This document shows positions 8,364-61,996 of a stretch of DNA of 64,000 nucleotides, piece by piece. Position 1 is the stretch's first letter, and each line of letters starts with the position of its first letter. Position numbers and translations under genes: made by a program. The notes beneath the pieces were generated by a model. It was not told where the DNA came from, made no database searches, and saw nothing but the letters and a program-made list of their open reading frames with translations. Source of the DNA: a virus; the IMG/VR virus record IMGVR_UViG_3300032087_004763, positions 1 through 64,000 of that record; one strand, 5' to 3'.

Positions 8364-8714
8364 TTATTTTGTGAAAAGACCCCACCGACCTTTTTTCTTT
8401 GGAGCTTCTTCGTGTGTATGCTCTTCTTCACCGCCATCATGATCGTGGACTGTACCATCGTCATGGTGGTGATGGTCCATGTCACCATCTTCGTGTGAAT
8501 GTTCCTCATCACCATGGGTGTGTACAAGAACATCTTCGAGCTCAACAACTTCTTCTACTGGCTCAAGAGCAGGAGCAACAGTTGGTTCTGCCGTTGCACC
8601 ATACCACTCATCAATCTGAGTCTGTGAGATCTTTGCAGCTTTAAGTAACTCACCACTTGTTTCGTGGCGCCATCCCTTTATAGTTGGGATAGCATTCTTT
8701 GGTCCTTTAATCAT
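8364..8714 (-). CDS. His/Asp/Glu-rich protein, putative metal binder
   Basis: VHTHGDEEHSHEDGDMDHHHHDDGTVHDHDGGEEEHTHEE; GGAG RBS. Confidence 0.75.
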   Translation of the reverse strand: MIKGPKNAIPTIKGWRHETSGELLKAAKISQTQIDEWYGATAEPTVAPALEPVEEVVELEDVLVHTHGDEEHSHEDGDMDHHHHDDGTVHDHDGGEEEHTHEEAPKKKGRWGLFTK

Positions 8715-9863: not shown

Positions 9864-10178
9864 TTACCATTTTACCTTATCTGCCCAATAAGCAGCTGAC
9901 ATCTTGCCTTTAGCAATGTTTTTACCGTGGCGTGCTTTAAATGATGCACGCTTCTTCTTCATTCTCTCTGACTCACCCTTCTTGGGATCACCAGCAGTTT
10001 CAGCTCCTTGTTGACCGAACCGAATTGTTTTTACCTTATCACCCGACTTAGCAACCACGATGTGACTCTTTGTAGGATGACTAGGTGTACGCTTTGCTTT
10101 ATTAAAACCAGTTACACCGGCTCTTGCAAGACGTGGATCTTTTTCTTCGAAGAACTGCTTAAACTTAACCAAACTCAT
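9864..10178 (-). CDS. basic putative internal head protein
   Basis: Start MSLVKFKQFFEE (capsid-targeting-like); KTIRFGQQG...RASFKARH..SAAYWA. Confidence 0.75.
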   Translation of the reverse strand: MSLVKFKQFFEEKDPRLARAGVTGFNKAKRTPSHPTKSHIVVAKSGDKVKTIRFGQQGAETAGDPKKGESERMKKKRASFKARHGKNIAKGKMSAAYWADKVKW

Positions 10179-10935
10179 GTCCAGCAATCCTTCTCATCTG
10201 TTTGTTGAACTCAGCTTGACCTGGTTTATTTTTGTACAACTTCTTAGTTAGACTACTGTTCTTCTTTCCTTTGATTCTCCAGTTGAATCCTTTCTTTTTA
10301 TGTTCTGGGTCAGTAGTTTTTACAAGTCTTCTCTTATACTGAGCTTCGTATGACTCTGGTCCTTTCGGTGCATCAGTACTACCACGAGTTCCTTCTGACA
10401 TACCTTTACTTTTGCAATAATCTCTTGCTGTATCAATATAATCCGTGGCCTTTGTGATCTTTGACTGAACCCACTCAGGCATATTTTCATCATCGTCAAG
10501 CATATCGTGTAATTCTTGTGCAGCATCGATCATAGTTCTTAACTTTGTCTTTGCCATCTCACCTTCTTGGTCATATTCATTAGGATCTTTATTTTCGTTT
10601 TGGCCTGGTGTCATCTTCTTTGCGTGCTTTCTCGCATCATCAGTTCCTTCATCAGGGAGATAGTTTTCAACAGCGAGATGCTTTGGCATCTGACCTTTCT
10701 TTATCATGTCGTTCAGTGTATCCACTAAAAGATTTCCATCTCTTGGTGAAAGACCCATCATCTTTACAACCTGTTGAACACCTTGTCTACCTTTGCCAGG
10801 ATTCTTCTTTCTCCAATCAAGGTACATGCGAACCATACTTTTTAGCTTTGGTTTCATAGCAATTTTATGAAGCCACTGTGGGATCATAGCTGATGATCCA
10901 GTCGTGGTTTCTGTAAAATCCTTGAATCTCTTCAT
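10165..10935 (-). CDS. modular putative internal head protein
   Basis: Start MKRFKDFTE; EGEMAK..LHDMLDDDENMPEWVQSKITKATDY module. Confidence 0.75.
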   Translation of the reverse strand: MKRFKDFTETTTGSSAMIPQWLHKIAMKPKLKSMVRMYLDWRKKNPGKGRQGVQQVVKMMGLSPRDGNLLVDTLNDMIKKGQMPKHLAVENYLPDEGTDDARKHAKKMTPGQNENKDPNEYDQEGEMAKTKLRTMIDAAQELHDMLDDDENMPEWVQSKITKATDYIDTARDYCKSKGMSEGTRGSTDAPKGPESYEAQYKRRLVKTTDPEHKKKGFNWRIKGKKNSSLTKKLYKNKPGQAEFNKQMRRIAGHEFG

Positions 10936-12125
10936 TTTTTAGCCCTAGTAATACCAGCCATACGGTTTCTTTGCTTACGTCTATAATACTTCTCAGCATC
11001 TTTGGCACCCATTTCTCTTGCAATATCTGCAGAGAACTGTTGGTGACCGTAGTCAGACTTTGCTTTATCATGATAGCGTTGTTTCAAATCCTGTGAGATC
11101 TCACCTAGCTTCTTTGGACGACCCTTCATCATATGAAGTTTTCCGTGTCTATCACGATCAGCCTTCTCTTTGTCTTGACGTGCCTTCTGTAAAGGTGACA
11201 TCATTCTCTGTGCCTGGCTACCGTATGCAGCTTCTTTCTGCAGTTGTGGTAGTCCAAACTGACTATTTGGTACTGGCTCAGACTTAGGCTCTGAATGCTT
11301 CTTCATTGGTACAAGTTTTTTACCATCCTTACTAGGAACAACTGAGGCTTCGGTTCTGAGCGATGCACGAGCTACTGGATTACCCATATTACCTTTAGCA
11401 GCGTCTGGACCAAATCCCTTTAATTTCACTTTATTATCTTGCTTAGCAAGTCTTTTTCTCCGTGCAGCATTTCGAGCATCATCATCCTTATTAGGATTTC
11501 CGTGATAGGTCACAGCTTCGTCCATCTCACGGCCCTGAGCCTTATTACGGAAAGCTTTTCTTACTTCCATGTCAGTGTGTCTCTCGACACTCTTAATCAT
11601 AGAAGGCTGCTTAACAATCTTACGAAGCTTCGCCATAATCTCTGCAGTAGACTTGCCAGTCATAAACGTAGGTGGCAGTCCTTCGACATCAACTTTGTAC
11701 TGTACAGCTTCATTTGTTGGCTTTTCGTGAGTATATCCCATCTTAGCATATTTGTTATGATCCGCAGGAGTTTTTGCTGTCACTTCTTTGCCTGTCTTAG
11801 GATCATACATCATATGAGGATACTTTGCAGCTTCGGTAGCAGGCACTTTAGCTCTAGAGCCAGCACCCACTTTCTTATCAAGTTTTGCTCTGGCCATCTG
11901 CAGACCCTTTGCTCTCTTGTTTGCAGTCTTAGTCGCAGCCCGCTTAGCTTCTTTATCTCCACGAGCAAATGCATCAGCACTTGCCTTAGCAGCTTTCTCA
12001 AGAGATCCTGCAGCGCCTGATTTTTTTAGCTTACCTTTATTATCTACAGATAAGCCAATGTAATTAGTAAGCTTTTTAGCAGATACTTCATCTAATTTTG
12101 CTCTGAGCTCTTTTAGTTTTTTCAT
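10932..12125 (-). CDS. basic polyprotein-like putative internal head protein
   Basis: Start MKKLKELRAKLDE; modules separated by xxE|A junctions. Confidence 0.75.
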   Translation of the reverse strand: MKKLKELRAKLDEVSAKKLTNYIGLSVDNKGKLKKSGAAGSLEKAAKASADAFARGDKEAKRAATKTANKRAKGLQMARAKLDKKVGAGSRAKVPATEAAKYPHMMYDPKTGKEVTAKTPADHNKYAKMGYTHEKPTNEAVQYKVDVEGLPPTFMTGKSTAEIMAKLRKIVKQPSMIKSVERHTDMEVRKAFRNKAQGREMDEAVTYHGNPNKDDDARNAARRKRLAKQDNKVKLKGFGPDAAKGNMGNPVARASLRTEASVVPSKDGKKLVPMKKHSEPKSEPVPNSQFGLPQLQKEAAYGSQAQRMMSPLQKARQDKEKADRDRHGKLHMMKGRPKKLGEISQDLKQRYHDKAKSDYGHQQFSADIAREMGAKDAEKYYRRKQRNRMAGITRAKK

Positions 12126-13351
12126 CCTGGAAGCTTCCCATTTTTTCTTCTATTCTTAAGTGTAGTACTTACAGCATCTGCAGCGTCTCTAGGGCTCATA
12201 CCTCTTTTCGTTGCTGCATTATAAGCTCTACCTGGAACAAGAACACCTCGTCCATAGTTCTGCTTAACAGCCTTTGGATCTTGCTTAGCATGCGCAGCAT
12301 CCTTTTCAGCTGCGCGCTTCTTCATATAAGCTTGAACCGCAGGTGACTTTGATGTAGCAAACTTCAGATGATCTCTAAACTTTTGATCAAATGACTTTGC
12401 TTCGCCCATCAAGTCTTTGTCTTTCGCCATCGCTCGCTTGGCATCACGCTCAGCTTTCTTCTTTTCTTTATTGATCTTCTCACCGGCTTTTCTAATCATG
12501 GCAAGACGCTCTGGTGTGCCAGCTTCTTTTGTAAGTCTATCTGTAGCCCTTGCAATACCCTTCTGTCTCTTTACAGACTTCACATAATCTTTACCAGACT
12601 GGTCAGGATTACTCATTGCTTTCTGTGCTGCGCTGTATGCCAAGCCTGCAGCAGATTGTGCTGCTTTAGGAATATAGCTACCGATCGTACTCTTCTTGAG
12701 TTCATCAACTTGAACTGCTTCTTTAAATTCACCCTTCTTAACTTTGTCCATAACTTGCTTGGCAAGATTAGTTGCAGTTGCGTGATCGATTTTCATATTC
12801 TTCTTAAGTGCTTCAATACCATGATTCATACTTTTAGTAGGTTTCATGATTTCATAAGCCCTTTTTGCAATAATATTTTCGCCAAGGTTTGTACTTTTTT
12901 TAGCATAATCAGGTGCTCGTTTAACAGGGCCATATGATGGTGACTTTACTTTGGAAGCTCTTTCACGCTCCCTCGCGAGATCTTGTCTTTCACGCTCTCT
13001 CCGCTTTGCAATTAAGTCTGATTGCGCCTGAAACTTATCTGGAGTCATCTCATCAACAGGCTGTGCATCACGAGCCCTCTTTGCAAGAGTTGTCGCGCGA
13101 GACATCGGAGACTGTTTAGTTCCGTCACTGTTCTTCACATTCTTAATTGGTTTCGCTCCCTTACCAATTACTTTTTCAACGTCTTTTGTTGGAAGAAGTG
13201 CTTCTTGCACAGATTCGTTCTTTGCAGACATGTAAGCAGCAATCGCCATATCACGGCGTTTTTCAGCTGACTTGCCGTCGAATTTAGGATTGTCAGATTT
13301 TTTAAAATCATCAATCCAGGTTTTAATTCCGTCTTTTACTGATAATGGCAT
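12122..13351 (-). CDS. basic polyprotein-like putative internal head protein
   Basis: Junctions VQE|A, VDE|M, LGE|N, FKE|A, VDE|L, TKE|A, MGE|A. Confidence 0.75.
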   Translation of the reverse strand: MPLSVKDGIKTWIDDFKKSDNPKFDGKSAEKRRDMAIAAYMSAKNESVQEALLPTKDVEKVIGKGAKPIKNVKNSDGTKQSPMSRATTLAKRARDAQPVDEMTPDKFQAQSDLIAKRRERERQDLARERERASKVKSPSYGPVKRAPDYAKKSTNLGENIIAKRAYEIMKPTKSMNHGIEALKKNMKIDHATATNLAKQVMDKVKKGEFKEAVQVDELKKSTIGSYIPKAAQSAAGLAYSAAQKAMSNPDQSGKDYVKSVKRQKGIARATDRLTKEAGTPERLAMIRKAGEKINKEKKKAERDAKRAMAKDKDLMGEAKSFDQKFRDHLKFATSKSPAVQAYMKKRAAEKDAAHAKQDPKAVKQNYGRGVLVPGRAYNAATKRGMSPRDAADAVSTTLKNRRKNGKLPG

Positions 13352-13590
13352 TATGCTAGATCCTTATCGTGATTGAGTCCACCTTTCTTTTTCTTCACAA
13401 TGAATGCATTGACTCTTGCATGTCCCCATTGTGATGGAGTTGTGCCAGGTCTGTGACCTGTTTTCCAAGCTGCAACACCGCGGTTGTAAACCTTACGAAG
13501 TGTTCCAACTGAGATTCCTGATTTCTTTGACTTATCGGCCAGAGACTTACCAGCCTTATCTTCTTCAATGTATTGTTGAAATTTAATCAT
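13351..13590 (-). CDS. small basic protein (DUF5824-like), putative internal head protein
   Basis: Start MIKFQQYIEE; SGISVGTLRKVYNRGVAAWKTGHRPGTTPSQWGHARVN. Confidence 0.75.
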   Translation of the reverse strand: MIKFQQYIEEDKAGKSLADKSKKSGISVGTLRKVYNRGVAAWKTGHRPGTTPSQWGHARVNAFIVKKKKGGLNHDKDLA

Positions 13591-14828
13591 GCGCTGGTAG
13601 TCCTTCTGTTAATCTTTCTAGTTCTAAGTGTTCTAGCTCTATCTAATATTGAATCATGACGCTTCTTATCTGCCGCATCTCTTCTTCTCTCAATTTCTTT
13701 TTCACGTGATATTGTAGCACGTGCTTGGTCAACTGTTTGTTCACCGTACATGTCTTTGAAAGCCTTAGTGTATTTACTTGGCTTTGTCTTAGCACCTTTA
13801 TCACCTGGTGCTGGCTTATAGGCTGATGGGTCATCATCACGCTTTTTACCGTGCTTCTTAAAATGAGCGTCTCGCTTTGTCTTAGTCGACTTAGCTAAGC
13901 CTCTATGATAAGCTGCAGGTTGAGATCCTTTACGATCTTTAATATCTGAATCTTGTGGAGTAGATTGCTCACTTAATGATTCCATTACAGAATATTCACG
14001 CTTATTAGGTTCTACTGGTTCGATCGCATCTAACCACTTACGATAAACATTTCCAGATCCTTCAACTATAATGTAGTTTGAACCAAGAGACTTAACTTTA
14101 GCTAGCTCACCGGTTTCCTTTATCGCGACTACATCACCGACATTAAACAACTTACCATTAACATATGACTCACGAATTTCTGATACAGGTTCTAGTTGAA
14201 CATGTTTTGCATATTCTTTTGTTTCTTTCAGTCCCATGCCTTTACGAACCATATTGTAAATGGCTTTTGTCTCTGCGTTCGACACATTCCGTGGAACACC
14301 TTGACTAAATTTTGTAAAGTCACCAGCTGAAGCGGCAGCTCTCATCTTCGAGGCTGACATACCTTCTACACCTTCGGCATCTGGATCTCGATCACCAGCA
14401 GACACGACATTGATTCTACTGAAGTTATAGAATCCGTGACGACCTTTCTGACCATTATACTTCTCGAGGAGTGTACTAAACTCTCTTACTCGATCTGATC
14501 CGACGACCATCACAAGAGTCTTATAGCCTTCTTTGTATAACTCAGATGCTGCATTCATTGCATTCTTTACGTTGTTATTCACCATCACGGATCTCGCATG
14601 CTTTGGAAACATCTTGCGGATAGCTTTGATTTTATCCTTGTATGCAAGAGGATTCTTCTTTGCGTCTTGTGATTGTGATACAAAAATTCTATATGGGTTT
14701 CTACCTGCCTTCGCAGCTAAAGCATTAAAGAGTTTTTCATGACCTGTAGTAGGAGGATTCATTCTACCAAATGTAAAGTAGACTGACTTTTCCTCTTCAA
14801 CAAGAAAGCTCTTAAACGAATTAATCAC
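13587..14828 (-). CDS. cytidyltransferase-like (HIGH superfamily) nucleotidyltransferase with basic C-terminal modules
   Basis: FTFGRMNPPTTGHEKL, VVGSDR, MSASKMR; start MINSFKSFLVEE. Confidence 0.85.
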   Translation of the reverse strand: MINSFKSFLVEEEKSVYFTFGRMNPPTTGHEKLFNALAAKAGRNPYRIFVSQSQDAKKNPLAYKDKIKAIRKMFPKHARSVMVNNNVKNAMNAASELYKEGYKTLVMVVGSDRVREFSTLLEKYNGQKGRHGFYNFSRINVVSAGDRDPDAEGVEGMSASKMRAAASAGDFTKFSQGVPRNVSNAETKAIYNMVRKGMGLKETKEYAKHVQLEPVSEIRESYVNGKLFNVGDVVAIKETGELAKVKSLGSNYIIVEGSGNVYRKWLDAIEPVEPNKREYSVMESLSEQSTPQDSDIKDRKGSQPAAYHRGLAKSTKTKRDAHFKKHGKKRDDDPSAYKPAPGDKGAKTKPSKYTKAFKDMYGEQTVDQARATISREKEIERRRDAADKKRHDSILDRARTLRTRKINRRTTSA

Positions 14829-15397: not shown

Positions 15398-16624
15398 CTA
15401 CGAACGGCGTGACGTTTGCCAGCCTTTCAAAATATCGGGGCTAAAGTTGGCGTATGAAAATTCCATACGATCAACAATCTTAACCGCATCACCACCAAGT
15501 TGATCAATGGCTACAAAGCCTTCTGATCCTGTGGTCTTGTAACCGTTCTTTGTTTTTAGAAACGTTGATATTTTATTAAAACGGTCTAATATATTTATCA
15601 GTTTTAGTTTCGCCAGAATGATAACTTTTTGCAAATCGAATATTTTTTTCAAAGAAGCTTGATTCTTGGCTGAGAAGAAATCTAATATTTCTTTTAACGC
15701 TTTCTGCTGAGTAGCTTTCCCAGCTGGAGTCGTTCTCTTATCGATTTCTTTTTGGTATTTACCTTTGATCCAGGTAATGAGTTTTCTCGTGTGCGCTCGA
15801 GTGTCATTAACAACTGTGCCTGCTCGTACGTAGGTGTTGTTAAATTGCTCAATGTGTTGTGCAAGTTTTTGATTCGATTCGAGCTCCCTAAGAGTCGAAC
15901 CTGCGATTTGGTTAAATAGCACCCCAGCTTGTTTAAGATAGCCATTTACTTCCTCCGTGTCTTTTGAAGACATCGTATAGGAAGTCATGTCTCGTAACAT
16001 GGCGTCTTGTGACCATACATTTGTTGTTGTTTTAAATTTCGAGACATCTACTCCATACGATGCTTTGAGTGTTTCGAATGTCCTACCACTATAGGAGGTA
16101 TGCCATACAACTCCTATCTTGGCTTTTTTGATTTGTTTTGCCATTTCCGTATCTGCCGGTACCGCATAGACGATCGTGTTAGGATGGAAAGTAACATAGG
16201 ATTTTCCTTTGATTTTCTTAGTTTGTATATCGTCGCTTGAGAATAGAAAATCGCCTTGAACCACACCTCGTATGCCAAGAGCCGGCAAATAAGCCAAAGC
16301 TTGCTTAAGCTTTGCATTTAAATCTCCACTTGTGTCCGCATCAATGTCTGCGTCAGTTTTGTATACCTTCGGATTTTTGTTGAAGATACCTTTCTTCGCT
16401 ACAAAAAATTCGCCATCACGAGGATCGGTACCAGCAAAAATAGCAGGAGCTCCATCCCATTTAACAGATACTCTACCATCGTGTTCTCCTGCAAATGTAT
16501 CTCGAAGCGATCGTAATGCTAGAATCGCTTCACGTGTACCATTGACTCCACCATAGAGAACCTTATCCTCGATGTGGGTCATATGTGTATTCTTTTGTTC
16601 TGTTATATAATCTCTAAAATACAT
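15398..16624 (-). CDS. ATP-dependent ligase-like covalent nucleotidyltransferase (DUF6267-like)
   Basis: Motifs in ligase order: SVKWDG (I), VQGDFLF (III), SEGFV (IV), AVKIV (V); start MYFRDYITE. Confidence 0.65.
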   Translation of the reverse strand: MYFRDYITEQKNTHMTHIEDKVLYGGVNGTREAILALRSLRDTFAGEHDGRVSVKWDGAPAIFAGTDPRDGEFFVAKKGIFNKNPKVYKTDADIDADTSGDLNAKLKQALAYLPALGIRGVVQGDFLFSSDDIQTKKIKGKSYVTFHPNTIVYAVPADTEMAKQIKKAKIGVVWHTSYSGRTFETLKASYGVDVSKFKTTTNVWSQDAMLRDMTSYTMSSKDTEEVNGYLKQAGVLFNQIAGSTLRELESNQKLAQHIEQFNNTYVRAGTVVNDTRAHTRKLITWIKGKYQKEIDKRTTPAGKATQQKALKEILDFFSAKNQASLKKIFDLQKVIILAKLKLINILDRFNKISTFLKTKNGYKTTGSEGFVAIDQLGGDAVKIVDRMEFSYANFSPDILKGWQTSRRS

Positions 16625-17393: not shown

Positions 17394-18775
17394 TATGCTG
17401 CACTCACTTTGACGTATACTGATGAATCATCGAGTTTTGATCCTGCATAGTTAACCATGTAGGACATAAAATCGTCTTGTTGTTTTTTCTTTGCTGTATG
17501 TAAAGCATGTGCAATTGTTGTCACACCAAGCTTTGCATGAATTCTGTCAATAGTAGCCGTTGCTAATCCTGACTCAAACTCTTCCTCTGTAATTGATGAA
17601 TCGATTGCTTTTGCCTTCCTAAATAAATCTGGTGCTTTCTTTGTACGTAAAATTGTTCTCGCTTCAGTTTTTAGCTGAGCATTTGTTGGTAGCTTTACAT
17701 TTAAGAAAGTACTTGCAGCATATTCAAGTTGAGAGTAACCGGCTCTACCGCCACGTGCACCTTTCAGAATAATCTCCATATTTAGTGCGCCCATAGAACT
17801 TGGTGCTCTAATATCAGCCTTTTTTGTTTTGTCAAAGAATACATCTCCGCCCTTACCTGACCAAAATGTGGATTTTGCTTGTTCAGCTTTAACTCTTACA
17901 CGAGTAAAGACATGTCGGTCAAGTTCTTTCTTTTCCATATTTAGAACTTCATGCTTAGCCTTAGCTTCAAGCTTGTTGATTTGCTTAAGCGAAATACCTA
18001 CGATATCTCTTGATACAAAATTCTTTGCAAGCGAAGCATTTAATGTTTCGATTGATGTAGAATCTAAAGCTCTCTTTACATCTATACCAGATCTCACTGC
18101 CCAGATATCACCTGGATTCCACTTATCATCTGTTAGAACTGGCTTACCTGAATTCTTGAATGCTGTTTTCTTCATGGCATAAATCGCTTTCATAGTAATA
18201 GATCCACGATGAAATTTGTGTTGCTTCGTAACAAATCCTTCTTCGATAAGATGCTTTGCAGTTACATAGGCCGAGTAGTGCCATTCAGCTGCAGCCTTCA
18301 TCATTTTCTCGTACGAAACATCTGTTTCGATATTGTTAGCGTGTCCTTTTAGAAGCTCTGGTGTAAAATGCGGAAACTCTTTATTCTTTCCTTCGGCAAG
18401 CATTGCTTGTAGATATAAACATTGTAGAGACTCACCATCTGCTGTGTTACCAGTTGCTCCCGCACCTGCACCTTTACCACCAAAGACCGGTGATTTACCA
18501 ACCTGATTAGATTGAATAATAGTCCCATCTTCCAATTCTAGTGGAAATGATTTTGTGGCATCATCGCTTTTAATGAAGGCTTTTACTGAATTTATGTTTT
18601 GAGCAATATTCTTTACTTTTAAGTCTTTACCCATAGTATCGGTTACGGGATTTGTAGGACTTTGAATCACATCAATAAGAATATTGAGACGCTTGTCTCC
18701 ATACTTGAACCACTCGGCTCGAGACATTGGCTTGAACACGGTCTTCTCCAGTAAGAATGCTTTAAATCTGAGCAT
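17393..18775 (-). CDS. putative PD-(D/E)xK restriction-endonuclease-like protein with capsid-targeting N-terminus
   Basis: TADGES (E) ... DKWNPGDIW ... GISLKQ (SxK variant); start MLRFKAFLLE. Confidence 0.6.
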   Translation of the reverse strand: MLRFKAFLLEKTVFKPMSRAEWFKYGDKRLNILIDVIQSPTNPVTDTMGKDLKVKNIAQNINSVKAFIKSDDATKSFPLELEDGTIIQSNQVGKSPVFGGKGAGAGATGNTADGESLQCLYLQAMLAEGKNKEFPHFTPELLKGHANNIETDVSYEKMMKAAAEWHYSAYVTAKHLIEEGFVTKQHKFHRGSITMKAIYAMKKTAFKNSGKPVLTDDKWNPGDIWAVRSGIDVKRALDSTSIETLNASLAKNFVSRDIVGISLKQINKLEAKAKHEVLNMEKKELDRHVFTRVRVKAEQAKSTFWSGKGGDVFFDKTKKADIRAPSSMGALNMEIILKGARGGRAGYSQLEYAASTFLNVKLPTNAQLKTEARTILRTKKAPDLFRKAKAIDSSITEEEFESGLATATIDRIHAKLGVTTIAHALHTAKKKQQDDFMSYMVNYAGSKLDDSSVYVKVSAA

Positions 18776-18777
18776 AA

Positions 18778-18816
18778 AAATAGTACCACAATAAGTGTAT
18801 TATGGTACTATTTATA
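18778..18816 (-). promoter_or_regulatory. T4-type late promoter TATAAATA (18816-18809) overlapping a 16-bp hairpin
   Basis: AAATAGTACCATAATA-CACT-TATTGTGGTACTATTT immediately before the ATG at 18775. Confidence 0.8.
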
Positions 18817-58858: not shown

Positions 58859-60238
58859 TTACGCGAGGATGTTATCCACTCTGAAAATGCGATAGTACTG
58901 GTTAGTCTTGACTGCAGCAAGACCGTCGGCTGGAGTAGTCCCGACGAATGGGTTTGAAGCCATACCGTAACGAGTCTTGAAGCCGATCTTAGGCTGGAAT
59001 GTATCTTCTCCAACCGCACGTACCATTGTTAATGGAACGTATGGGCAGTAGAACAGACCAGAGTCATACGGGTTAGTACCCTTATAACCAACTGTGACAT
59101 AGTCTGTAGTTGAGAACGGATCAATGTACACACGTGTACGTCCATTCAGAACACCAGCGAATGTGTTACCAGTGTCGTCAACGTTCAAGTTAGTTGACAT
59201 AGCTGGTGAGTAGTCGAGCATGCCAGAAGCAGCGAGTGCACTTGCAACGTCTGATGAACAGATGATGAAGTTACCCTTACCTCTACGAGTCTCTTTAGCG
59301 ATTGTGTTAGCTTCTCTTTCGATCTGCACAATCAGACCCTTGAACTTCTCAACTGACCAACGGCCATCAGCGTCGAGTGACAAGTTAAAGATACCCTTGG
59401 TATCAATACCGTCTTGACGAGCACCGAACTTAGCCTGTGAGTTAATCGTACGAATAACTTCACGGTTGATCTCAGCAAGAATCTCTGTAGACAGAATGTT
59501 TGCAAGCTCTGTCTCAGCGTCAAGACCATGAATCGCTTTCAAGTCTTGAGCCAATTCTAAGCTGTATTCTGCCTTCAAAGCACGCGAGCGAGCTGTTACT
59601 GTAGCTTTCTCAATCGTGAAGCCCATCTCAGCAAATGCTTGAGAAGAACCACCAGATCCGAGAGCTTCAGCAGTAGCTGTCGACATACCGGCACTTGCAG
59701 GAGGCGTACCCAATCCACCAGGTACATAAGTTGATTCTGAGTCAAGCAATGAAGAGTCATTGTCTGTATCAGAAACACCAGTTAAGCCAGAAGGACCAGC
59801 TGAACCTTGACCTGTGCCTGAGTCTCCAGAGTACTGAACCAGTGCTTCGTCGAACAGAGCTTCTGTATCTTCAGTTCTTGAACCACCACGTGCAGCACCA
59901 CCAGTAGAAGTCTGATAACGAGACTTCATAGCAAAGATGAGGCCAGTAGGACCAGTCATTGGCTGAACACCACAAACGTCATAAGCCATGAGGTTAGGCA
60001 TAGCACGACGAACGAGTGCAATCAATACTGGGTTCCAGTTAGCAGCATTGCCTGTTGCGTTAGAAGGTGTCTCCGTGAGGTGTTGCTGTTGTGCAGCTTC
60101 CTCATTGAACGCACGCTCTTGGTTTTCTAATACCGCAGCTGTTACAGCTTTACGGTGGCTATCTGTGATCGATCCAGCTGTCTCGTTGTCGAGAACCGGT
60201 GACCACTTTTCGATCAAACGATCGTATGATTCCATCAT
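58859..60238 (-). CDS. 23: major capsid protein gp23
   Basis: LVRRAMPNL, VQPMTGPTGLIFAM, KAEYSLELAQDLKAIHGLDAE, FQPKIGFKTRYG. Confidence 0.98.
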   Translation of the reverse strand: MMESYDRLIEKWSPVLDNETAGSITDSHRKAVTAAVLENQERAFNEEAAQQQHLTETPSNATGNAANWNPVLIALVRRAMPNLMAYDVCGVQPMTGPTGLIFAMKSRYQTSTGGAARGGSRTEDTEALFDEALVQYSGDSGTGQGSAGPSGLTGVSDTDNDSSLLDSESTYVPGGLGTPPASAGMSTATAEALGSGGSSQAFAEMGFTIEKATVTARSRALKAEYSLELAQDLKAIHGLDAETELANILSTEILAEINREVIRTINSQAKFGARQDGIDTKGIFNLSLDADGRWSVEKFKGLIVQIEREANTIAKETRRGKGNFIICSSDVASALAASGMLDYSPAMSTNLNVDDTGNTFAGVLNGRTRVYIDPFSTTDYVTVGYKGTNPYDSGLFYCPYVPLTMVRAVGEDTFQPKIGFKTRYGMASNPFVGTTPADGLAAVKTNQYYRIFRVDNILA

Positions 60239-60256: not shown

Positions 60257-61330
60257 TTATTTTGCTGTCTTTTCGAGAGCTGAAAGATATGATGCCATTG
60301 AACCAGAAGCTTGGACTGGAGAATCTCCGCCTTGCTCATCCTGGAACTCAGCTTCAGCTGACTCTTTGACTTCTTTATTGAAGTATGACTCTTTGACGGT
60401 CTCTACTTTCGCAGCGAAAGTTTCTTCGTCTTCAAAGTCAATATCTTCGACGAGTGATTTTAGCTTCTCAACTTGAGTCTCAGCAAGACCACGCGCAGAT
60501 TCACGAATGATTGCATCCCGCTTATAATGCTCAAGTTCTTCAGCCATAGTAATAGCTTGTGCAGTTGTATCGTTGAGTCTGTCTTCCAACTCTTCAACGG
60601 TATCTGCCAAGTCATCAACTAGGTCGACCTTAGACTCTGGTACGTCGATGTAGCTTTCTTCGAACAGGCCTTTCAGTCCTGTCATGAAGTCTTCTGCAAT
60701 CTCGGCACGTAAGCCTGACTGGATAGCGACTTGATTGTCTTCCATCCACTGTTCAACTACGTAGTTGAGGTATGAATCGACTTTTTCGACCATGTCAGCT
60801 TTTGTAGACTCAAGCTCTTCTGAGAGCTCTTCCTCATACTTTGCCTCAAGACGATCGATCTCCTCAGACAGCTTATGCTTGATAGCTGCTTCGAAGATTG
60901 TTCCGGCCTTAGTTCTGAACTCTTCTGACAAAGTGGCTTCGTCATTGATCAGAGCATTTAGGTCGTCGGAAAAGTCTGGCTGATACTGAAGTTCAGCTTC
61001 TTCTGCAGATTGATCCTCGAATGACTCACTCATGCCACCGTGATACGATGCATAAAGTTTAGCCATTTCTGACTTAGGCATACCGTTCATCTTAGTAAAC
61101 ATAGCATTAATCATGCCAGCCTTAGTCTTAGGCATTGGATCTTGTTTAGTGTTGTCACCTTTACGCTTTGGAGCGCTTCCAGTTGCATCACCAGCTTTAT
61201 CTACAGAGGCTACTGACTGTGCTTCAGCATTCTTCGGATCATGACCGTGAGCTGCTTCCACGATTTCGTCTTCGTTCTCAACGTCATCGTGGAGCTCAAT
61301 TTCTTGATCTTCAGTATATTGATCAGTCAT
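60257..61330 (-). CDS. 22: prohead core scaffold gp22
   Basis: LSEEFRTKAGTIFEAA, VDSYLNYVVEQW, VKESYF. Confidence 0.93.
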   Translation of the reverse strand: MTDQYTEDQEIELHDDVENEDEIVEAAHGHDPKNAEAQSVASVDKAGDATGSAPKRKGDNTKQDPMPKTKAGMINAMFTKMNGMPKSEMAKLYASYHGGMSESFEDQSAEEAELQYQPDFSDDLNALINDEATLSEEFRTKAGTIFEAAIKHKLSEEIDRLEAKYEEELSEELESTKADMVEKVDSYLNYVVEQWMEDNQVAIQSGLRAEIAEDFMTGLKGLFEESYIDVPESKVDLVDDLADTVEELEDRLNDTTAQAITMAEELEHYKRDAIIRESARGLAETQVEKLKSLVEDIDFEDEETFAAKVETVKESYFNKEVKESAEAEFQDEQGGDSPVQASGSMASYLSALEKTAK

Positions 61331-61342
61331 AATTGACTCCTA

Positions 61343-61996
61343 TTATTTTGATTTGAGTAACGAGAGGAAATTTTTAAACTCACGAATCTGTACCTCATAG
61401 AGATCTTTTCGTGGAGCTTTCTTAATTTCAGTCTCCATTTGTTCAATACGTCTTGCTTCGATGATACCGTTATTCCAAACCCAATCAACACCTTCCATAA
61501 CTCCATTAACAAAAGCATTTGGTGCAGATGGATCTTGAACGATATCGACAGCGTTGAGCATGAAGTCTTTACCGACCATCATGGCATCGCCACCTCTTTG
61601 CAGACTTCCCATACCACGAGTTGAAACGCCAACCCTAACCCCGCCATCGAGAAGACCTTCAACGATCTTACCCATAGGAGTTGCCAGTATTGTCGCTTTT
61701 CCAACAACATCGTTCCCCTTCCAATTAAGAGAATCGATCTTGTGAGAAACTTTATCTAGGTTGATCGTTGGTCCCTCAGGATGATTGAGTTCACCAACAG
61801 CTCTACCTTTTGAAACTTGTTCGTCAATATATTTGTTAACCGCAGACTCCATGACTTCTTTTGGATAGATTCTGCCGTTCCGGTTCTTTTGCTCTGCTGA
61901 AGCAAAAATACCTTCAATAGCATAACTCTTCTTACCGTCTTTCGCTTCGACGATACATTCGATGTCTTGGTCGGTATATTCTGCGATCAGTTTCAT
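61343..61996 (-). CDS. 21: prohead protease gp21
   Basis: MKLIAE, NRNGRIYP, GELNHP, GVSTRGMGSL, DPSAPNAFV. Confidence 0.96.
   Translation of the reverse strand: MKLIAEYTDQDIECIVEAKDGKKSYAIEGIFASAEQKNRNGRIYPKEVMESAVNKYIDEQVSKGRAVGELNHPEGPTINLDKVSHKIDSLNWKGNDVVGKATILATPMGKIVEGLLDGGVRVGVSTRGMGSLQRGGDAMMVGKDFMLNAVDIVQDPSAPNAFVNGVMEGVDWVWNNGIIEARRIEQMETEIKKAPRKDLYEVQIREFKNFLSLLKSK

Follow-up and report, generated by a model that had tools for sequence, protein, structure and literature searches.

The internal proteins of phage T4 offer the closest described comparison for the genes considered here. They are basic, Lys-rich proteins with a leader of ~10 aa, the capsid-targeting sequence (CTS), which ends in hydrophobic-x-Glu and is a target of the gp21-type protease. 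Residues 4 and 7 of the T4 CTS govern targeting and residues 8 and 10 processing; an Asp at P1, the residue before the cut, prevents processing in T4. The cleavage motif is missing from the mature part, and the loci are highly variable between related phages. In IPII and IPIII, the sole [LIVMF]-x-E in each protein is the CTS cleavage site (T4 record L016). We analyzed three adjoining genes for basic proteins in a 64,000-nucleotide stretch of virus DNA (IMG/VR record IMGVR_UViG_3300032087_004763, positions 1 to 64,000; hereafter the window). Its source is a T4-like marine myophage of 142 kb; among cultured phages it is closest to Melnitz, which infects OM43, and to cyanomyophages. Whereas the T4 internal proteins are single units cut once, two of the marine genes are arrays of 7-8 units with a cut-type site at each joint and with units that move between genes. 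They have no detectable sequence similarity to IPI-III, and one of the two is leaderless. From comparison with relatives, we read the products of these two genes as head-internal polyproteins that would be processed by a gp21-type prohead protease, and assign this reading a probability of roughly 0.62.

Further systems were considered for comparison. The inner-body and ejection proteins of phiKZ, 201phi2-1 and SPN3US (gp175/gp245) are likewise head-internal, and a protease related to gp21 cleaves them behind the Glu of a short motif, with multiple, redundant sites per substrate and with paralogues that have conserved N-termini (PMC5694885, PMC7411985, PMC9026906). Their multiple cuts, however, are reported mainly for long propeptides, which are then removed from the head. 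The motif there is (S/A/G)-x-E, and these papers do not report that small modules are shuffled between genes. Polyvalent proteins (Iyer et al. 2017, PMC5512222) are mosaic, multi-module proteins that are packaged and delivered with the DNA and vary fast in domain order; a mosaic, rapidly varying domain order in a late/packaging context was also present in relatives of the gene cluster in the window. Polyvalent proteins have large enzymatic domains, and their processing, if any, is thought to be carried out by their own peptidase domains, whereas the marine modules are small (39-92 aa), non-enzymatic and basic. None of the catalogued polyvalent effector domains (ART, MuF, Zeta toxin, peptidases, nucleases) was found in the three basic proteins in the Pfam search. 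Relatives of the cluster carry Zeta-toxin-like kinase and nucleotidyltransferase domains, and Zeta_toxin and DUF5824 fusions were confined to neighbouring genes in relatives. The polyproteins of RNA viruses such as picornaviruses and flaviviruses are a similar case, in which a viral protease recognizes short conserved sites and divides one translation product into several functional proteins. Neither these proteases nor these viruses are related to the present ones, and the marine processing would occur in the assembling capsid, with units that would be interchangeable cargo rather than replication machinery.

The basic proteins and their modules

The three basic proteins and the head genes of the window are as follows.

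10165-10935, minus strand: 256-aa basic protein, net charge +15
10932-12125, minus strand: 397-aa basic protein, net charge +48
12122-13351, minus strand: 409-aa basic protein, net charge +44
58859-60238, minus strand: gp23 major capsid protein (phrog_138, E 6.7e-160), with L-T-E at the propeptide end
60257-61330: scaffold protein
61343-61996, minus strand: gp21-type prohead protease, the proposed processing enzyme (Peptidase_S77, PF03420, E 1.1e-38)

A first-pass annotation of the window, made by a model from the DNA letters, had described the three minus-strand open reading frames (ORFs) as basic polyproteins, and the proteins were as described, with pI values of 9.6-10.2, ~16% Lys and ~13% Ala. 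Overlaps of the stop and start codons of adjoining ORFs (TAATG, ATGA) couple the three translationally. The annotation had also listed 14 sites at which the 397-aa and 409-aa proteins would divide after Glu; each was present at the place given. The resulting units, 7-8 per protein and every one net positive, measured 39-92 aa. The propeptide of the window gp23 was confirmed to end in HLTE followed by T, and a relative, contig L015, has L-F-E at the matching place. The modules are listed below in the order of each protein.

12087-12125, minus strand: 13-aa N-terminal leader of the 397-aa protein, ending in L-D-E13; a separate unit, followed by different modules in relatives
11832-12086, minus strand: B1 (residues 14-98), ending in A-T-E98; distant copy of the repeated helical module
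11709-11831, minus strand: B2 (residues 99-139); small beta-hairpin plus helix, predicted local distance difference test (pLDDT) score 69-83
11517-11708, minus strand: B3 (residues 140-203); shares homology with the core of the T4-GC426 proteins of cyanophages (Syn9 gp190, S-SM1 gp197)
10935-11516, minus strand: B4 (204-259), B5 (260-298), B6 (299-342) and B7 (343-397); B7 is a second copy of the repeated module
13202-13351, minus strand: C1 (residues 1-50 of the 409-aa protein); the module most often found at the N-terminus in the family
12701-13201, minus strand: C2 (51-101), C3 (102-158) and C4 (159-217), with support for the boundaries at VDE101 and VDE217
12524-12700, minus strand: C5 (residues 218-276), the repeated module; in hundreds of proteins, with up to 6-8 copies each
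12401-12523, minus strand: C6 (residues 277-317); 41-aa mobile cassette, between C5 and C7 in the window
12125-12400, minus strand: C7 (residues 318-409); C-terminal, net charge +15, directly preceded by MGE317

The 256-aa protein consists of a 9-aa leader resembling the T4 CTS, a middle part A2 (~112-176) that it has in common with cyanophage proteins, and a C-terminal part A3 (177-256). It is probably head-internal polyprotein cargo as well.

The first-pass annotation had proposed one module in three copies over the two larger genes. A C5 profile built from 193 copies outside the window matched residues 215-276 of the 409-aa protein (E 2e-24) and residues 342-395 of the 397-aa protein (E 0.001); its match to residues 11-84, which cover B1, was marginal. 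In profile-profile comparison (hhalign), C5 and B7 were matched with 96% probability (E 2e-9) and C5 and B1 with 73% (E 3e-5), whereas each of eight control module pairs stayed below 8%. The three copies are thus homologous by this comparison.

No functional family for the basic proteins emerged from searches of Pfam, PHROGs or the ESM Atlas. No Pfam domain was found in them, and the sole match was one of the 397-aa protein (residues 97-236) to phrog_696, with an E value of 5.3e-5. Only one module is common to the 397-aa protein and phrog_696/T4-GC426, so the whole protein is not a member. Neither Pfam nor PHROGs yielded a match to the T4 internal-protein families, and only the leader pattern is common with IPI, IPII and IPIII. 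At the DNA level, a search of phage records returned only one match, of 160 nt, to a cyanophage.

Module exchange and the junction motif

Module architectures in relatives were determined with the units of the first-pass annotation as queries. The 397-aa protein had 899 relatives at E <=1e-3 among the scored candidates, and the 409-aa protein matched 1314 cluster representatives. Most matches were short stretches of 60-97% identity at varying positions in proteins of 100-1250 aa, and the ends of the high-scoring segment pairs concentrated at the junctions. The same modules were found reordered or in tandem, with six copies of C5 in one relative (P0141) and four of B2 in another (P0041); a third (P0011) combined modules of both window genes in one protein. 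C1 was also found internally, and in P0157 it is preceded by a 13-aa leader. A leader of the 13-aa type stands directly before B3 in at least 10 relatives.

Gains and losses respected the same boundaries. In the alignment of the 397-aa protein with its homologues (A1), indels were whole cassettes with boundaries exactly after Glu. The B2 cassette, of which Melnitz has a copy, is missing from several close homologues, and in four of them the missing stretch is bounded exactly by the Glu residues of ATE and TNE. At the MDE203 site, between B3 and B4 and followed by Ala, homologues of the 397-aa protein carry either an inserted A2-like cassette or the 41-aa C6 cassette. C6 in turn is missing between C5 and C7 in P0122, P0124 and P0011. 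Module gain and loss in homologues thus coincided with the Glu junctions, and these whole-module indels together with the variable architectures bear out the annotation's proposal of a cassette array; indels away from the Glu junctions, which the annotation had named as a refutation, do not speak against it. In the preferred reading, the unit of evolution is the cassette flanked by cut sites. Since the modules are self-contained and would be flanked by cleavage sites, their gain, loss, duplication or exchange would be harmless to the neighbours, and a cassette mosaic would result.

The residues at the joints were then compared over 376 distinct module starts. Position P1, directly before the joint, was Glu at 362 of them (96%), against a background of 7%. 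At P3 one of L, I, V, M or F was found in 75%, compared with 26% for Glu residues generally. When the C5 family was excluded, the values were 94% for Glu at P1 and 54% for a hydrophobic P3. P1', the first residue of the module, was Ala in 37%, Leu in 33%, Ile in 12% and Glu in 9%. For single modules, [LIV]-x-E preceded C5 in 155 of 156 contexts, and the upstream context ended in Glu in 61 of 65 cases for B3 and 32 of 33 for C7. The LGE158 junction between C3 and C4, followed by Asn, had little comparative support. Residues P4-P12 upstream of the modules were unrelated between contexts, and the motif is therefore a property of the joint rather than of the modules that meet there. An analysis that ignored the annotated boundaries, using BLAST breakpoints with dissimilar flanks, gave Glu as the first aligned residue in 20% of cases, compared with 3-9% further upstream.

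The earlier annotation had cited the T4 rule that gp21 cuts after (I/L)-x-E. The dominance of Glu at P1 and of a hydrophobic residue at P3 is strong indirect support for protease-type sites. The specificity that it implies is broader than this rule, since P3 may also be V, M or F and at times T, K or A.

Inside the modules the motif was avoided. Observed/expected ratios in module interiors were as follows.

[LIVMF]-x-E: 0.11
[LIVMF]-x-D: 0.73
[LIVMF]-x-K: 1.72
[LIVMF]-x-Q: 1.15
[LIVMF]-x-x-E: 0.94
[LIVMF]-E: 1.41
[KR]-x-E: 0.67

In absolute numbers, 13 interior [LIVMF]-x-E motifs were observed where ~120 were expected from composition (~9-fold depletion), a pooled figure that overstates independence because family members are related. 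With one representative per family, a rough estimate still gave ~5.5 expected and ~1 seen (P ~0.03). Twelve of the 15 module families had no interior [LIVMF]-x-E at all. The genome-wide ratio was 1.16, and across the whole proteins of the cluster no avoidance was seen (ratio ~1), so that the depletion is specific to module interiors. The 397-aa and 409-aa proteins together have ten [LIVMF]-x-E motifs, none of them outside the leader and the proposed junctions. T4 IPII and IPIII display the same avoidance as the marine modules. A motif kept at the joints and purged elsewhere is what selection through a site-specific protease would be predicted to leave.

Taken by itself, the window does not set the junctions apart. 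Its counts of Glu-Ala and of [LIVMF]-x-E were within the range of shuffled sequences (P 0.05-0.86), and the first-pass annotation had chosen 7 of 22 Glu residues per protein as junctions. The case for the junctions therefore rests on the comparison with relatives. These window-only figures are in line with another explanation, in which the pattern arose by chance in Lys/Ala/Glu-rich sequence of low complexity and true modules are absent. The comparative data contradict that explanation: modules are 60-97% identical across many relatives in differing contexts, cassette indels are exact, and the junction statistics are far from background. We rejected it as highly improbable.

A different origin of the joints would lie in the DNA. 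The proteins could be intracellular, non-virion DNA-binding proteins of the late or middle phase, acting in the nucleoid or in replication, whose modules recombine at GAA-GCT microhomology and so preserve Glu-Ala joints. In the window, the junction Glu codon is GAA at 12 of 14 sites and is followed by a GCN Ala codon at 9 of 14. However, Ala occupies P1' at little more than a third of the junctions in relatives, with Leu, Ile and Glu common, and DNA microhomology cannot account for the hydrophobic preference at P3 or for the avoidance inside modules. Given the variation at P1' and a P3 preference that operates on the protein, microhomology was rejected as the main cause of the joints. An intracellular role would fit the location of the cluster among replication and nucleotide-metabolism genes. 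Against this stand the six products of a syntenic cluster in S-SM1 virions and the leaders matching the T4 CTS, both described below, the late promoter boxes, and the location of one relative within a head-gene block. We consider this explanation improbable as a whole.

Leaders, virion homologues and the question of cleavage

In other relatives, the N-terminus is a leader of 10 aa that departs from the T4 CTS at only a few positions. The CTS pattern (~10 aa, aromatic or hydrophobic residues at positions 4 and 7, terminal hydrophobic-x-Glu) was found in the 256-aa protein and many homologues, and the leader of the 397-aa protein is the 13-aa variant. Within the window genome, CTS-like N-termini occurred only at 9.8-18.8 kb. 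Besides the 256-aa protein, they were carried by a cytidylyltransferase-like HIGH-type enzyme (13587-14828, minus strand) and a DUF6267 protein with a KxDG ligase-type motif (15398-16624, minus strand); both of these are probably packaged and injected. CTS-like leaders were also found in the clusters of Melnitz and of cyanophages. The Pfam family DUF5824 is split in the window: its first half matches the C-terminus of the 413-aa enzyme at 13587-14828 and its second half a separate 79-aa ORF (13351-13590, minus strand) with its own leader. As the family falls on two ORFs, Pfam seems to have merged two cassettes.

Published virion data bear on the location of the homologues. In virions of cyanophage S-SM1 that had been purified, Sullivan et al. 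2010 found 41 proteins (PMC3037559). Seven of the gene clusters detected are relevant here (peptide counts from PMC3037559, Table S8 and text).

T4-GC190, cytidylyltransferase: 25 peptide counts
T4-GC426, structural protein: 17 peptide counts
T4-GC425, S-layer domain protein: 17 peptide counts
T4-GC119, structural protein: 13 peptide counts
T4-GC1453, structural protein: 12 peptide counts
T4-GC1454, structural protein: 10 peptide counts
T4-GC1455, structural protein: 7 peptide counts

All except GC119 correspond to S-SM1 genes 188, 190, 191, 192, 195 and 197, a cluster that is syntenic with the window block. The neighbour of the basic ORFs at 13587-14828 is 44% identical to S-SM1 gp190 (GC190; E 3e-70). 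The B3 profile matched Syn9 gp190, P-SSM4 gp163 and S-SM1 gp197 (hidden Markov model independent E values of 4e-5 to 6e-6; blastp 1e-4), and C5 matched P-SSM4 gp160, a T4-GC119 protein (independent E value 1.5e-8), in which the module edges coincide with [LIVMF]-x-E. Homologues of three elements of the locus are therefore represented in the S-SM1 virion clusters (PMC3037559): C5 in a GC119 member, B3 in GC426 and the neighbouring nucleotidyltransferase as GC190. The S-SM1 proteins were left unexplained by the authors, who noted no leaders, cut sites or cassettes (PMC3037559). Syn9 gp190, P-SSM4 gp163 and S-SM1 gp197 (L010, L011 and L012) are basic proteins of 174-182 aa that bear the GenBank label 'major head protein'. 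Since the capsid protein is gp23, this label, which was carried into phrog_696, is misleading; the three look like internal head proteins.

Packaging of the window proteins in the head is likely, and cleavage at most of the joints is probable, to a lesser degree. The proposal of virus-style polyproteins matured inside the head agrees with the junction motif, its avoidance, the S77 gp21 and the leaders and virion detection of homologues. The virion location of homologues in a cyanophage comes from published data; for these particular proteins we infer packaging, the cleavage itself and the role of the freed modules. According to the proposed course, the genes would be transcribed late within the translationally coupled block, and the products would enter the prohead core, by a T4-like capsid-targeting leader where one is present. 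The Peptidase_S77 gp21-type protease would then cut after Glu at the hydrophobic-x-Glu joints, taking off the leader and freeing basic modules of 39-92 aa. The basic products would remain with the packaged DNA and enter the host together with it. Since the lysines of the T4 internal proteins contact DNA phosphates, charge neutralization is plausible for the freed modules; they might neutralize DNA charge, act as early effectors, or both. Their mosaic turnover resembles that of counter-defence cargo.

Several observations weigh against processed, head-internal polyproteins. The 409-aa protein has no CTS-like leader. About one quarter of the junctions in relatives have T, K, A or Q at P3, which is outside the classical T4 rule, and P3 is non-hydrophobic at 5 of the 14 listed window sites. 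GC190 and GC426 were not detected in the Syn9 or S-PM2 virion proteomes (PMC3037559). Parts of a cyanophage GC119 protein match podovirus-sized records of 34-38 kb (S-B43 and P-SCSP1m), one of them annotated as a structural protein; podovirus-sized phages may thus share GC119 cassettes without having an S77 protease, and if so, those modules need no cleavage. The AlphaFold model of the 397-aa protein, computed with 18 homologues (A1), was poor, with a pLDDT of 54 and a predicted template modeling score (pTM) of 0.17. It has a low-confidence, beads-on-a-string form in which B2 is the best-defined unit, and only 5 of the 7 junctions lie in segments with pLDDT <50. These low-pLDDT junctions are weakly compatible with exposed joints.

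The chief rival to processed polyproteins is packaging without internal cleavage. The proteins would then be packaged cargo that loses at most its leader, and the Glu junctions would serve as flexible linkers or as motifs for docking, perhaps to the scaffold core. The T4 internal proteins, which are cut once only, beside the CTS, would provide the precedent, and the weak linkers between the beads of the AlphaFold model as well as the many non-canonical P3 residues would fit. Virion proteomics of the homologues cannot separate whole proteins from fragments. A linker role, however, gives no account of why hydrophobic-x-Glu is avoided inside modules while close control motifs are spared, or of the recurrence of this motif at the ends of the leader and of the gp23 propeptide. 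In addition, relatives have tandem double sites 5-7 residues apart, which look like redundant cut sites, as in the propeptides of phiKZ and SPN3US. We regard packaging of intact proteins as unlikely, and retain head-internal polyproteins cut by the prohead protease as the preferred reading.

Genomic setting and implications for marine T4-like phages

T4-type replication genes are encoded within the window. All relatives examined were on T4-like contigs, in a syntenic position between a gp41-type helicase and the nrd genes. One mosaic relative of 1188 aa on a metagenomic contig (L015:536-4102) has eight C5-type modules and lies two genes upstream of gp21, which is followed by the scaffold gene and gp23. 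T4 prohead core genes 67 and 68 presumably occupy roughly the same position. Late transcription is suggested by promoter boxes, of which the following precedes the block.

18809-18816, minus strand: TATAAATA, a late promoter box of the T4 type that precedes the first gene of the block by ~30 nt

Matches to the late box numbered 10 in the window, compared with 3.5 expected, and TATAAATA or NATAAATA boxes stood upstream of syntenic cluster genes in Melnitz, in metagenomic relatives (e.g. L004) and in cyanophages. Scans of the window for terminators and sigma-70 promoters gave chance-level results only, and a literature search on the timing of expression of the Syn9 cluster returned nothing usable.

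Two other features of the block were observed. In the stretch 18775-18816 (minus strand), a perfect 6-bp inverted repeat (GTACCA...TGGTAC), followed by a T run, separates the TATAAATA box from the start codon of a 460-aa gene; the repeat could act as a regulatory hairpin or terminate the gene upstream. An acidic 116-aa protein is encoded inside the block (8364-8714, minus strand), and its C-terminal half is rich in His, Asp and Glu, so that it is possibly metal-binding cargo.

In the literature searched, no description of CTS-like leaders or of cassette polyproteins in marine T4-like phages was found, and cassette-polyprotein cargo appears to be new for tailed phages. If the preferred reading is correct, it would account for a block that lacks annotation and varies strongly among pelagimyophages, cyanomyophages and the OM43 phage Melnitz, and for the 'hypothetical' proteins and the nucleotidyltransferase in cyanophage virions. 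The T4 internal-protein paradigm would be widened from single proteins to cassette polyproteins. A sequence rule, consisting of a leader, hydrophobic-x-Glu joints and avoidance of the motif inside units, would predict packaged cargo and its mature ends. A broader generalization is more tentative, and we hold it rather doubtful at present: in marine T4-like phages at large, the prohead protease might, within the capsid, split the product of each gene into a dozen or more different small basic proteins that would act independently as effectors or DNA-packing units, with the protease sites doubling as joints of exchange between genes and phages. The analysis defines hundreds of small modules as candidates for anti-defence or DNA-condensing activity, and relatives of the phage are already in culture. 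If the broader generalization holds, some of the ocean's most abundant viruses, the phages of SAR11, OM43 and picocyanobacteria, would carry a combinatorial, fast-evolving payload.

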